Made by a program: the position numbers and the translations under genes
Shown: piece by piece, positions 1,512-3,585 of the stretch
Layout of the letters: every line of letters begins with the position of its first letter
Numbering within the stretch: the stretch's first letter is position 1
DNA from: a phage
Assembly (NCBI GenBank): GCA_021146965.1
Contig: GCA_021146965.1_4847.1
Direction: 5' to 3' (one strand)
Length of the DNA stretch: 46,431 bases
The notes under the pieces: model-generated
What the model saw: the letters and a program-made list of their open reading frames with translations, nothing else
Database searches by the model: none
Told to the model about the DNA's origin: nothing

Positions 1512-1514
1512 ATA

Positions 1515-1540
1515 AAGCCGCATGAAGCGGCTTTTAATTT
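1515..1540 (+). terminator. rho-independent terminator
   Basis: hairpin AAGCCGC-atga-GCGGCTT followed by T-rich run directly after stop of 1137..1511. Confidence 0.6.
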
Positions 1541-1616
1541 GGTGGACACGGACGAATTTGAACCTTCAATCAGCCGATTATTAGTCGGTTGCTTTAACCA
1601 ATTAAGCTACGCGTCC
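1540..1616 (-). tRNA. tRNA-like gene (77 nt, encoded CCA; anticodon loop CUAAUAA, anticodon reads AAU, identity uncertain)
   Basis: minus-strand sequence GGACGCG-TA-GCTT-AATTGGTTA-AAGC-A-ACCGA-CTAATAA-TCGGC-TGATT-GAAGG-TTCAAAT-TCGTC-CGTGTCC-A-CCA folds as cloverleaf: 7-bp acceptor stem (one G-U), 4-bp D stem with GG in D loop, T8/A9, U33, T-loop TTCAAAT; one mismatch each in anticodon and T stems. Confidence 0.45.
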
Positions 1617-2137
1617 ATAAGTGCTGGTTTAAGCATTGCCAGCGTGCTTTCTTAACATCCAGCCCCGTAACCCATACATACCCCTACATATGATTGCGAT
1701 AATGCTGGATATTAAGTGTTGTGGTGGCCGGTGCTGATCTCCGGCATAAGGCGCTTATTCGGCGGCGTCGAGCTTGCTTATTCGCTTGAGCCATCCTCGT
1801 GAGTCAGCCACGTCCCACTGCGCATCAGCCTGCGCATTCACCACAACGGAAAGAGCACTGATGCGCTCACTTGGGACTCCTTAGCCATAACCCACGGGCT
1901 TCTGGTACACCAATGCTCTTACCTGTTGTGTTCCCTGACTTATTAATCACACCTCAGGGACGCAGTGCGCCGAATTTGTTTACAAGGAATCGGAAGACCT
2001 TGCTGACTTACAGGCTATTACGTCGCCATCAGAACAACATCATCGTTTGCATTTATCTTTGTGGTCAGTTTCTAAAAAGTCCGCAAAGTCGCTCACGAAA
2101 ACTATCTGAAATACAATCTACACCACAAAATAATCGC

Positions 2138-2158
2138 TGTCAACACCTGTGATATAAT
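2138..2158 (+). promoter_or_regulatory. putative sigma70 promoter with extended -10 (TGaTATAAT)
   Basis: TGTCAACAC at 2138-2146, TGA+TATAAT at 2150-2158, 37 nt upstream of major tail gene ATG; same TGTCAACAC...TGaTATAAT arrangement recurs at 3531-3556. Confidence 0.45.
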
Positions 2159-2194
2159 CACCACGTTAGCAGCTAACACAATTCGGAGATCGAA

Positions 2195-2916: not shown

Positions 2917-2945
2917 AAAAGCCCCGAAAGGGGCTTTGTTTTATT
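2917..2945. terminator. rho-independent terminator (likely bidirectional)
   Basis: AAAAGCCCC-gaaa-GGGGCTTT hairpin followed by GTTTTATT; lies between convergent genes 2195..2914(+) and 2941..3141(-). Confidence 0.65.
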
Positions 2946-3141
2946 CTTGTGGTGGTTCTGGCAGATTGGCCCAGTGGGTAGCTGGAATTCCGTGACAGCA
3001 GTCCAATTCACTAACAAATATCTTGCTGCCAATATTATCGACAGCTTTACATGCCGCAGTTCTAACAACACCGCGAAATGCTGTAAGAACCATCGTTCCT
3101 TCTTCTGGCATTCGCTCACTACACTTAATCCACTGGCTCAT
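2941..3141 (-). CDS. DUF551-like protein
   Basis: 66-aa ORF MSQWIKCSERMPEEG...IPATHWANLPEPPQE matches the DUF551 pattern recalled from phage proteins; translationally coupled (ATGA) to upstream ORF. Confidence 0.5.
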   Translation of the reverse strand: MSQWIKCSERMPEEGTMVLTAFRGVVRTAACKAVDNIGSKIFVSELDCCHGIPATHWANLPEPPQE

Positions 3142-3281
3142 ATCACCTTGTCCTCATCAAAAATCACGCCAATAACGCGAAGTAAGTCTTTCGCCATGCG
3201 TTCCGCTTCCTCGTAGTCGTAACCTGCATCAACATACAAATCAGTGTAGAAAATCAGGTCAGCTTTTGTTTGTTCGTTCAT
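3138..3281 (-). CDS. small hypothetical protein (47 aa incl. stop)
   Basis: ORF MNEQTKADLIFYTDLYVDAGYDYEEAERMAKDLLRVIGVIFDEDKVI linking two flanking genes by ATGA overlaps at both ends; below ORF-track size cut-off. Confidence 0.4.
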   Translation of the reverse strand: MNEQTKADLIFYTDLYVDAGYDYEEAERMAKDLLRVIGVIFDEDKVI

Positions 3282-3472
3282 TTCTTGTCGCCACTGTTAA
3301 CTAATGCCCAAACAAGTGCCGCAACCCATCCAATAAAGCTCCACCCGACAAGAATATTCAGTACACAGATTGCTGTCGTGTTTGTGTGCTTGCGTTGCAA
3401 AGCCACAAATGATGGAAGAAGATAAACAAATATAACCAATCCAGCAAAAAGCAACAAAATAACAACATCCAT
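3278..3472 (-). CDS. superinfection-immunity-like small membrane protein
   Basis: 64-aa ORF with two hydrophobic helices; motif YLLPSFVALQRKHTNTTAICVLNILVGWSFIGWVAALVWAL resembles the Imm_superinfect family signature (LP..IA..R.H.N..aI...N...GWt.iGWv.AL.WA) from memory. Confidence 0.5.
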   Translation of the reverse strand: MDVVILLLFAGLVIFVYLLPSFVALQRKHTNTTAICVLNILVGWSFIGWVAALVWALVNSGDKK

Positions 3473-3530
3473 AACTCACCTCATTCATATCTCGTTTCGA
3501 TGATTTGAATCTACATCACCACCTCGCAGG

Positions 3531-3556
3531 TGTCAACACTACTGAGATGATATAAT
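3531..3556 (+). promoter_or_regulatory. putative sigma70 promoter with extended -10 (TGaTATAAT)
   Basis: TGTCAACAC 3531-3539 and TGA+TATAAT 3548-3556, ~30 nt upstream of 3586 ATG. Confidence 0.45.
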
Positions 3557-3585
3557 CAACATCAGTCAAATTCAGGATGCAAAAC

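Follow-up and report, generated by a model that had tools for sequence, protein, structure and literature searches.

What is a block of non-coding DNA doing inside the tail module of a phage? The window analyzed here, a 46,431-nt stretch of phage DNA (NCBI GenBank assembly GCA_021146965.1, contig GCA_021146965.1_4847.1), carries such a block at positions 1512 to 2194, and an original prediction made from the letters alone had placed in it a tRNA-like gene and an interrupted hairpin. All coordinates refer to this whole stretch, and the block is read mainly on the minus strand. The block forms a moron, a self-contained cassette that is non-coding and oriented against the tail genes. In its direction of reading, a tRNA gene (1540–1616) is preceded by a module of approximately 175 nt (1932–2104), which is built like the template part of a transfer-messenger RNA (tmRNA) and begins with an arm complementary to the tmRNA of the host. 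Together with the protein SmpB, tmRNA forms the universal bacterial system for ribosome rescue and protein tagging, and several phages depend on it. The best explanation of the locus as a whole, to which we assign a probability of roughly 0.4, is a non-coding cassette that combines a working tRNA with a module that would dock on the host tmRNA and re-template it.

The module consists of the 5′ arm, a linker, a tag frame, a hairpin like helix 5 (H5) of tmRNA, and two pseudoknots, and a 176-nt query was used for the corresponding BLAST searches. Its tmRNA-like tag frame (2015–2050, minus strand) reads GCA AAC GAU GAU GUU GUU CUG AUG GCG ACG UAA UAG, equivalent to ANDDVVLMAT with two stop codons; the tag of E. 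coli tmRNA is ANDENYALAA. The frame comprised exactly 10 codons in all 131 readable copies and followed the pattern AN[D/E]...AA, with ANDDLMMVAA, ANDDVVLMAA, ANEEMYLAVA, ANDDLMLMAA, ANDEQFLAVA, and ANDNTFLAVA among the variants. The preceding linker GAAACUGACCACAAAGAUAAAU (2051–2072, minus strand) is conserved, with an in-frame UAG at codon −8 and an AUAAAU stretch just before the resume codon. Likewise, a stop codon precedes the frame in phase in each of the 131 copies, at a distance of 8 codons (6 in one copy), and ATG, GTG, and TTG are absent from there to the Ala codon. Since a stop without a subsequent start codon lies upstream, the frame would not be initiable and could only be resumed, as it is on tmRNA. 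An Ala resume codon, the lack of a start codon, and a hydrophobic-Ala-Ala ending before the stop, which together characterize a tmRNA template, were all found in the module, and ARAGORN at relaxed settings chose the same tags. Within 37 distinct sequences, codon 10 was GCC, GCG, GCT, or GCA in 35, codon 1 was GCA or GCT, codon 2 was AAC or AAT, and codon 11 was always TAA. The entropy of the frame by codon position was 0.64/0.42/0.96, and synonymous codon variation was seen. As judged from these aligned copies, the tag frame shows a constraint at the level of the peptide.

The region following the tag is a conserved structured RNA, for which 42 diverse copies were aligned and their covarying pairs counted. 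The H5-like hairpin CUGA...UCAG (2003–2032, minus strand) encloses the last tag codons and the stops, and at its pair 107/130, GC (26 sequences) alternates with AU (16 sequences). It is followed by an H-type pseudoknot, CAAGG[UCUUCCGAUU]CCUUG ... UCGG (1970–2002, minus strand), which the Rfam model beta_tmRNA aligns and in which six pairs changed on both sides, three of them in the CAAGG/CCUUG stem and three in the pairing of the loop with UCGG. In the second pseudoknot, CGCAC[..UCCCUGA..]GUGUG-AUUAAUAA-..UCAGGGA (1932–1969, minus strand), the stem covaries, and the pairing of the loop with the downstream strand is kept in nine sequence versions. The order of tag, helix with the stop codon inside, and pseudoknots is thus that of a tmRNA.

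The tRNA-like domain (TLD) of a tmRNA, with its G3:U70 pair, T arm, and 3′ CCA, was not found in cis. ARAGORN at normal settings made no tmRNA call and, throughout the 46 kb, nothing except the tRNA exceeded an Rfam threshold. The Rfam models tmRNA_permuted, beta_tmRNA, and tmRNA matched the module below threshold in this phage and in every relative, the best scores being 30.4 bits against a gathering score of 47, 18.1 against 84, and 13 against 47, respectively. In the sense direction, the local alignment of the module with E. coli ssrA, the gene of tmRNA, reached a score of 21 compared with 19.6 ± 2.8 for chance, which is not significant. The kinship with tmRNA rests on the features of the tag frame and on the sub-threshold Rfam matches. 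One candidate was rejected: a 'tmRNA' called by default ARAGORN in phage swi2 (1640–2014, tag AKAVRLRKCSFRCGECAG) borrows the 3′ half of the tRNA and uses a different, unconserved frame, and it was regarded as a false positive. Counts of phage tmRNAs in the literature that are based on ARAGORN may include such cases.

The first 32 nt of the module form the 5′ arm, UAGUUUUCGU-GA-GCGAC-UUUGCGG-A-CUUUUUA (2073–2104, minus strand), which is collinear and antisense to nt 68–106 of the host tmRNA. The target in ssrA of E. coli K-12 reads UAAAAAG CCGCAAA [AAAUA] GUCGC [AAACG] ACGAAAACUA and covers the 3′ strand of pseudoknot 1 (PK1), the resume codon, and tag codons 3 to 6. The arm matches it in four collinear complementary blocks of 10, 5, 7, and 7 nt, and it fits the tag codons of the host (ACGAAAACUA) and not the module's own tag. 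In a gapped local alignment with the reverse complement of ssrA, it scored 36 compared with 15.0 ± 2.5 for shuffled arms (z = 8.5), and none of 300 shuffles reached this value. The relation was kept in 40 of 40 distinct variants (scores of 29 to 44), some of which match 18 of 19 target bases, and the complementary blocks are invariant columns of the module alignment. In phage Sf17 and in the Erwinia phage Faunus (Chaseviridae), other sub-blocks of the same ssrA target are present. Altogether, the complementarity exceeds chance at z = 6 to 8.5 and is conserved in homologues. Similarity to ssrA was within chance in the two variable segments described below (V1 and V2), the pre-tRNA leader, and the tRNA, so that in either orientation the arm alone is related to it. 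As the target is almost invariant in Enterobacterales, including ssrA of Escherichia, Citrobacter, Enterobacter, Raoultella, Serratia, Erwinia, and Providencia, co-variation between arm and host is uninformative.

From these elements, a mechanism can be proposed. The cassette would be transcribed on the minus strand from a sigma-70-like promoter, TTGACA-17-TAGATT (2143–2115, 10 of 12 positions matching), which points towards the tRNA; transcription is predicted to begin near 2107, which leaves 3 nt to the antisense arm. The order of the cassette would then be promoter, module of approximately 175 nt, spacer hairpin, a tRNA-shaped region termed the B-C domain, tRNA(AAU), and terminator (1534–1514), and the module would be the central part of a mobile element at the head of phage tRNA operons. 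In the infected cell, the arm would pair with the host tmRNA from the PK1 3′ strand across the resume codon to tag codons 3 to 6, and the tag template of the host would be silenced. Next to the arm, the module would offer a set of its own, made up of an upstream AUA motif, a resume codon for Ala, a degradation-type tag of 10 codons, H5, and two pseudoknots, with the phage resume codon placed where that of the host would leave PK1. Host tmRNA and SmpB would provide the TLD, while the docked phage RNA would provide the template as a 'parasitic coding piece', and rescued proteins would carry a phage peptide in place of ANDENYALAA. In its full form, namely a mobile, TLD-less tmRNA template of Enterobacterales phages that makes a hybrid host–phage two-piece tmRNA and reprograms trans-translation with phage tags, the proposal is possible and still somewhat doubtful.

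Several observations weigh against this proposal. We know of no tmRNA that receives its template in trans by pairing to the mRNA-like domain of a host tmRNA, and a template tethered at its 5′ side only would be a conjectural arrangement. The arm itself might be what is left of a captured piece of ssrA that had been duplicated in inverted orientation. PK1-like 5′ helices (AGUUUU/AGAAACU and CUUUG/CAAAG) are 88 to 93% paired in the alignment without any double change, and they overlap the antisense arm. Among 1000 shuffles of the whole 200-nt block, one attained the alignment score of the arm, and the duplex energy of the arm calculated with RNAduplex (−35.1 kcal/mol) lies within the range of other 42-nt windows of the locus (−33 to −37 kcal/mol). 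Because the energy did not discriminate, the gapped alignment with shuffles was used as the statistic. An extra piece in the Yersinia phage PYps16T matches the Y. pestis-type tag at a z of about 2.5, which is only suggestive. With regard to the tag, some of its conservation could be structural, as the last codons are located in H5. Most relatives end their tag with ...MAA and the two stops, and the ending ...MAT found here results from a change of codon 10 from GCG to ACG (Ala to Thr, base 2023) that is private to this phage (1 of 135 copies). This change and a second private one in the tRNA gene at base 1555 could reflect relaxed selection, laboratory passage, or a sequencing error. Lastly, phage Skate carries the AAU tRNA while its whole module is deleted (equivalent to about 1950–2114), and the viability of Skate indicates that the module is dispensable for plaque formation in the laboratory.

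Much of the same evidence would be expected if the RNA acted on tmRNA without ever being translated. As an antisense small RNA (sRNA) or decoy, the arm would block or destabilize tmRNA, or the body would titrate SmpB, S1, or RNase R, and the tmRNA-like shape would be kept as a mimic of the natural ligand. The complementarity speaks for such a role as much as for re-templating, the lack of a TLD in cis agrees with it, and a precedent exists in the TLD-only molecule of phage DS6A, a tmRNA fragment inhibiting tmRNA (PMC4131195). However, the use of all four Ala codons at codon 10, the three-nucleotide periodicity, the fixed length, and the invariant TAA point to selection on a translated peptide, and a pure antisense RNA would need neither the context of a resume codon nor H5 and two pseudoknots. 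We consider a decoy unlikely, albeit as an explanation that deserves serious attention.

The distribution of the module, which extends far beyond the relatives of this phage, counts in favour of the proposed re-templating. BLAST found it in 519 phage records from at least seven otherwise unrelated phage groups, with Skate-like and Klebsiella siphophages, Schitoviridae (Pollock, 94%), the P22-like HK620, Ackermannviridae (CBA120, Vi01), Ounavirinae (Sf17), P1/P7, and Chaseviridae as its carriers. Among the phage matches listed, it bears no annotation or at most that of a hypothetical protein. A pattern scan of IMG/VR found it in at least 120 contigs, and 653 of 5426 complete E. coli genomes (about 12%) carry it, in lambdoid prophages, where it lies between Q and S, and on P1-like plasmids. 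The prokaryotic genome annotation pipeline (PGAP) placed nothing over the E. coli copies in most of the matches listed and a hypothetical protein in a few.

The genetic context of the copies differs. A tRNA follows downstream on the same strand in 60 of 113 loci and lies on the opposite strand in none, and 52 of the 113 are devoid of any tRNA. In Pollock, a strong terminator stands behind the module with no tRNA-like element in between; in HK620, the module is situated within the pR′–tQ leader; in P7, it comes after the C1-controlled ban operator and before tRNA-Asn and tRNA-Thr; and in Sf17, it is flanked by two tRNAs. Common to these contexts is the unit of arm, linker, tag, H5, and two pseudoknots. 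In the present phage, the promoter-like site stands 3 nt upstream of the arm, and the next strong terminator is only reached past the tRNA. As a side observation, the four tRNAs (Pro, Met, Arg, Leu) of Pollock (NC_027381, 566–895) are annotated opposite to the strand on which ARAGORN and Rfam find them with 70 to 75 bits, which is probably a strand error in the record.

This context could also be that of a relic, an old captured fragment of a tmRNA gene that would now only provide a mobile tRNA operon with its leader and with a scaffold for processing (promoter, RNase sites, spacers). The position of the module at the head of tRNA operons, the conserved spacer hairpins between modules and tRNAs, and the existence of Skate without the module are in line with it, and prophage-borne ssrA fragments from imprecise excision are known (PMC9004378). 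A mere scaffold would not account for synonymous variation within a frame fixed at 10 codons, nor for pseudoknots that covary and antisense blocks matched to the host, all kept over seven groups that differ by 20 to 30% elsewhere. Nor does it suit the 52 loci without a tRNA or the copy in Pollock, which is a stand-alone terminated unit, and imprecise excision would take the 3′ end of ssrA and not the tag region. Overall, a relic appears rather improbable.

Between the module and the tRNA, two further structures were delineated on the minus strand. The spacer hairpin (1848–1931) has the form GGUAAGAGCAUU-[V1, 1860–1909]-AGUGCUCUUUCC, with a conserved stem and a loop, the variable segment V1, for which each lineage has its own sequence; in P1/P7, this motif is found between modules and tRNAs. 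The B-C domain (1718–1859) is tRNA-shaped, with the closing helix GUUGUGGUG/CACCACAAC, the variable segment V2 (1746–1819), and two invariant hairpins, UGCGCA-GGCUGA-UGCGCA and GCCGG-AGAUCAGCA-CCGGC. It is nearly invariant and hence offers no covariation, and it has no Rfam match. As a candidate for the TLD of a tmRNA, it was rejected because there is no G3:U70 (the corresponding pair is U3-A70), no CCA, and no similarity to ssrA in either sense.

If such a domain nevertheless served as acceptor in cis, the unit would be a self-contained, newly permuted tmRNA made of template, pseudoknots, and TLD, and the arm would shut off the competing host tmRNA. The closing helix UGUGGUG/CACCACA with its two flanking hairpins is indeed cloverleaf-like, and Skate, Akira, and ST1UNAM substitute a version with canonical D and T arms. 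Furthermore, CBA120 has a 68-nt element of acceptor and T arm ending in CCA 30 nt past the module, and Faunus has GCGGGAG...GCAGGUUCGAAUCCUGC-CUCCCGC. However, none of these domains contains G3:U70, most have no encoded CCA, and neither their distance nor their sequence is conserved. Pollock possesses none before its terminator, in Sf17 and P1 their place is taken by ordinary tRNAs, the domains escape ARAGORN and Rfam at normal thresholds, and RNase P would cut the template off. A permuted tmRNA of this kind is therefore judged very doubtful.

Aberrant tRNA-like domains 3′ of the module were noted at about 1710–1778 in CBA120, 889–975 in Faunus, 2818–2944 in Skate, and 1785–1900 in Sf17; their acceptor and T arms are good, the D and anticodon regions are odd or absent, a CCA end is present in some, and they are not called by normal tRNA finders. 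In P7, positions 2747–2862 match the Salmonella sRNA STnc100 near the Rfam threshold (43 against 47 bits) beside a copy of the spacer and Block B, and the motif AGUGCUCUUUCCGUUGUGGUGAA occurs three times in the tRNA region of P1/P7.

The tRNA itself was confirmed by both ARAGORN and Rfam. ARAGORN called a tRNA-Ile(aat) with exactly the bounds originally proposed for a 77-nt cloverleaf (1540–1616, minus strand), and the Rfam scan gave 56.3 bits for RF00005 against a gathering score of 29, with relatives' tRNAs at 47.5 to 64.4 bits. The encoded CCA, the T-loop TTCAAAT, and the D-loop GG were read directly in the sequence. The cloverleaf is complete, comprising a 7-bp acceptor stem with one G.U pair, the discriminator base, and CCA. 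The two stem mismatches noticed before are A27.C43 and A51.G63 (cmscan marks four 'v' columns), both non-Watson-Crick and both common to all family members; since every member has them, they are family traits and not signs of decay. Eight aligned family members differ only at the first anticodon base and at 1 to 4 other positions, and the gene is already annotated in the closest GenBank relatives. Outside the family, the nearest tRNA is tRNA-Ile(GAU) of Pseudomonas phages of the PAK_P type (PAK_P4, 79% identity). The body carries A73, C4-G69, U12-A23, and C29-G41 (conventional numbering), which Nureki et al. reportedly defined in 1994 as the Ile identity set of E. coli. On account of this set, the family is read as Ile-type, as far as identity can be told from bases.

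In the first anticodon base, two alleles are found. AAT occurs in this phage, ZCEC08, and Skate, and CAT in Bas80, STGO-35-1, swi2, Akira, and KFSST1 (five of the eight aligned members); IMG/VR contains 11 CAT and 3 AAT contigs. Carriers of AAT in GenBank are the Salmonella phages Skate, Seszw, and PJN025 and the E. coli phages 6947, HC6, HC8A, and ZCEC08. The CAU allele is most likely a lysidine-dependent reader of AUA, like tRNA-Ile2, whose anticodon is not the one present here, as this phage has AAU. Such a reader fits the codon use of the phage, with 10.9 AUA, 8.9 AGA, and 7.6 AGG per 1000 (about 4–5, 2, and 1 in E. coli), and also the Arg(UCU) and Ser(GCU) tRNAs that fill the same slot in relatives. 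An A34 as in the anticodon AAU is unusual for bacteria and not a normal bacterial Ile anticodon. Given that TadA acts specifically on tRNA-Arg(ACG), the A34 found here is probably left unmodified and would decode AUU and perhaps other codons; that it frees the tRNA from TilS is speculation. How Ile codons are decoded by an unmodified A34 in bacteria is a separate and smaller question that this allele raises.

Taken together, the tRNA is supported as a working, family-wide phage tRNA with CAU as the usual and AAU as the minority allele. The small number of differences across many related phages, the score well above threshold, and the terminator behind the gene point to a functional phage tRNA, which was one of the options initially offered. 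Two others were not supported. Against a recombination target derived from a tRNA, the comparison with host tRNA genes found no common segment at the BLAST level. That the tRNA-like gene is a pseudogene in decay or the remnant of an attachment site could be argued from the AAU anticodon, the two mismatches, and a G53.U61 wobble (base 1555, C61 to U), which is private to this phage, lowers the score from 62 to 56 bits, and replaces an otherwise near-universal G53-C61. As the mismatches are family-wide, the encoded CCA and the cloverleaf are complete at 56 to 63 bits, no segment is shared with host tRNAs, and AAU is fixed in several independent phage isolates from two host genera, E. coli and Salmonella, decay is very improbable.

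Upstream of the tRNA lies a conserved 101-nt pre-tRNA leader (1617–1717, minus strand) with a 13-bp hairpin (1651–1663/1704–1716), which is kept in Bas77 and ST1UNAM, both without a tRNA. Downstream, the hairpin of a bidirectional intrinsic terminator (1514–1534, both strands) closes the minus-strand unit as well as the upstream operon on the plus strand. The tRNA slot contains Met, Met and Arg, Ser and Arg, Ile, or no tRNA in the different relatives, and because different tRNA sets occupy the same slot, it is a hot spot of cassette exchange. In swi2, Akira, and KFSST1, genes of HNH homing endonucleases are situated beside the slot, just upstream of the locus.

The gap as a whole was confirmed. 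Its flanking genes on the plus strand are a conserved gene of 124 amino acids at 1137–1511 (phrog_782) and the major tail protein at 2195–2914 (phrog_853). In BLAST searches, 901 bases around the locus were 99.4 to 99.7% identical to the E. coli phages vB_Eco_ZCEC08, HC6, 6947, and HC8A, and 90 to 96% identical to a large set of siphophages of Escherichia, Salmonella, and Shigella with genomes of approximately 46 to 48 kb, among them Bas80, STGO-35-1, swi2, Akira, Sf11, KFS-SE2, Skate, and relatives of Vi II-E1. When the gap sequences of ten relatives were aligned with MAFFT, near-identical blocks alternated with segments that had been replaced wholesale.

This mosaic also bears on the long hairpin of the original prediction. 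The inverted repeat (1812–1828/1858–1877) is present as GTCCCA plus GCGCATCAG, that is 6 + 9 = 15 bp with a 2/5-nt internal loop; it was read from the sequence, since the repeat finder omits it owing to the interruption. The surrounding DNA is GC-rich as described (60% GC at 1726–1875 compared with about 45% in the flanks). As a conserved structure, the hairpin (1812–1877) was rejected, since it spans V1, Block B, and V2, differs between relatives, and is absent from the centroid fold. The suspicion that the gap encodes a structured non-coding RNA thus stood in so far as a conserved, covarying RNA exists there, although it is located at 1932–2104 on the minus strand and not at the hairpin. Its tag frame and its complementarity to host tmRNA had not been part of the prediction.

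The ORF at 1871–2152, which had rightly been suspected to be non-coding, starts with TTG, has no Pfam match, and runs antisense to the covarying stems. It matches phrog_26260, a family of unknown function with 46 amino acids (PHROG match at 1934–2059, plus strand), and this family was probably built from spurious ORF calls over the RNA module. Small protein-coding genes in the gap, with the tRNA as the sole RNA gene, would agree with the phrog_26260 match and with the plus-strand ORFs that the GenBank records of Bas80, Bas77, Skate, and KFSST1 annotate, but this reading is scarcely credible, given that these ORFs use TTG or CTG starts, take differing frames on the same DNA, are broken by indels, have no Pfam match, and face covarying stems on the opposite strand. 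The ORFs annotated in homologous phages were accordingly judged non-coding.

Back to back with the minus-strand promoter, an extended −10 element for the major tail gene, TGATATAAT, was found on the plus strand at 2150–2158; it is invariant in ten relatives, and the same element is located at about 3548–3556. Such a back-to-back promoter cassette is present in two copies in this genome, at 2106–2165 and 3500–3560, each with TTGACA...TAGATT on the minus strand and TGATATAAT on the plus strand before tail genes, and the motifs AATCTACA, TGTCAACAC, and TGATATAATCA are common to both. The second copy belongs to another antisense-oriented moron (2918–3560), which separates the major tail gene from the tail gene after it. 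Here, three small minus-strand genes are found at 3472–3278 (membrane/Imm-like), 3281–3138, and 3141–2941, driven from the promoter TTGACA-17-TAGATT at 3536–3508 and ended by a bidirectional terminator at 2918–2937, and the content of this slot differs between relatives.

Among known systems, the nearest to the module is the coding piece of the two-piece (permuted) tmRNA of Alpha- and Betaproteobacteria and cyanobacteria (RF01849, RF01850, RF04321; phage Melnitz, PMC9004378). Like this piece, the module is a separate RNA with an Ala resume codon, a tag of approximately 10 codons ending in Ala-Ala, the stop in a hairpin, and pseudoknots next to it; the partner is held by base pairing only, which for the module is a prediction, and the beta_tmRNA model aligns both the tag and the first pseudoknot. 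In contrast to two-piece tmRNA, the module has neither the 5′ acceptor strand nor the P2 strand, no acceptor piece was found in the genome, its pairing surface is antisense to the template of the partner and not to the acceptor stem, and it scores 22.8 to 30.4 against a gathering score of 47. The complete tmRNAs of mycobacteriophage cluster C1 and Bacillus phage G (PMC4131195) are likewise trans-translation RNAs beside tRNA genes, but they possess a full TLD and are detected by ARAGORN, whereas the module is missed by every annotation pipeline. The TLD-only fragment of DS6A (PMC4131195, PMC11915505) is likewise a part of a tmRNA kept by a phage, and an effect on trans-translation of the host has been proposed for it. 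In the parts that are retained, it mirrors the module, as it keeps the TLD without a tag, while the module keeps tag and pseudoknots without this domain and adds an antisense arm.

The pairing of a phage RNA with a non-coding RNA of the host is also a feature of AgvB and AsxR; here, the predicted target is tmRNA, and the module carries a template in addition. Both are prophage anti-sRNAs of pathogenic E. coli that Tree et al. reportedly described in 2014 as short sponges for Hfq-dependent sRNAs. The tRNA of the cassette shares its slot with the Arg(UCU) and Ser(GCU) tRNAs of relatives and differs from the usual rare-codon phage tRNAs by its AAU anticodon. Such rare-codon tRNAs include ileZ/argN/argO of Shiga toxin (Stx) phages and tRNA-Ile of T4.

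Surveys of tmRNA have reported phage tmRNAs only in mycobacteriophages, Bacillus phage G, and, as TLD only, DS6A (PMC4131195; PMC11915505), and a later survey with ARAGORN listed 402 phages with complete tmRNAs (PMC9004378). Our full-text literature search for phage tmRNA, the tag peptides, nucleotide strings, and antisense RNA to tmRNA returned no description of the module, although its coverage is incomplete and an earlier description is possible. As described here, a tmRNA-derived RNA that fails the TLD test and is joined to an antisense arm would be new. To our knowledge, no viral factor that rewires tmRNA–SmpB has been described either.

The module is present in hundreds of phage genomes, yet it has been missed by tRNA and tmRNA finders, by Rfam, and by NCBI annotation. 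Its carriers include model phages and candidates for therapy, such as P1/P7, HK620, relatives of CBA120 and Vi01, and members of the BASEL collection. On the practical side, it is mis-annotated as small hypothetical proteins (phrog_26260), and surveys that demand a TLD pass over it. For the biology of these phages, the module suggests a tampering with ribosome rescue. If it does pair with the host tmRNA, it would offer a testable route by which a phage controls stalled ribosomes and truncated proteins during infection, and it would be a natural case of a template given to tmRNA in trans. Should rescued proteins indeed receive the phage tag, this would be the first case of a virus rewriting the tag of ribosome rescue.

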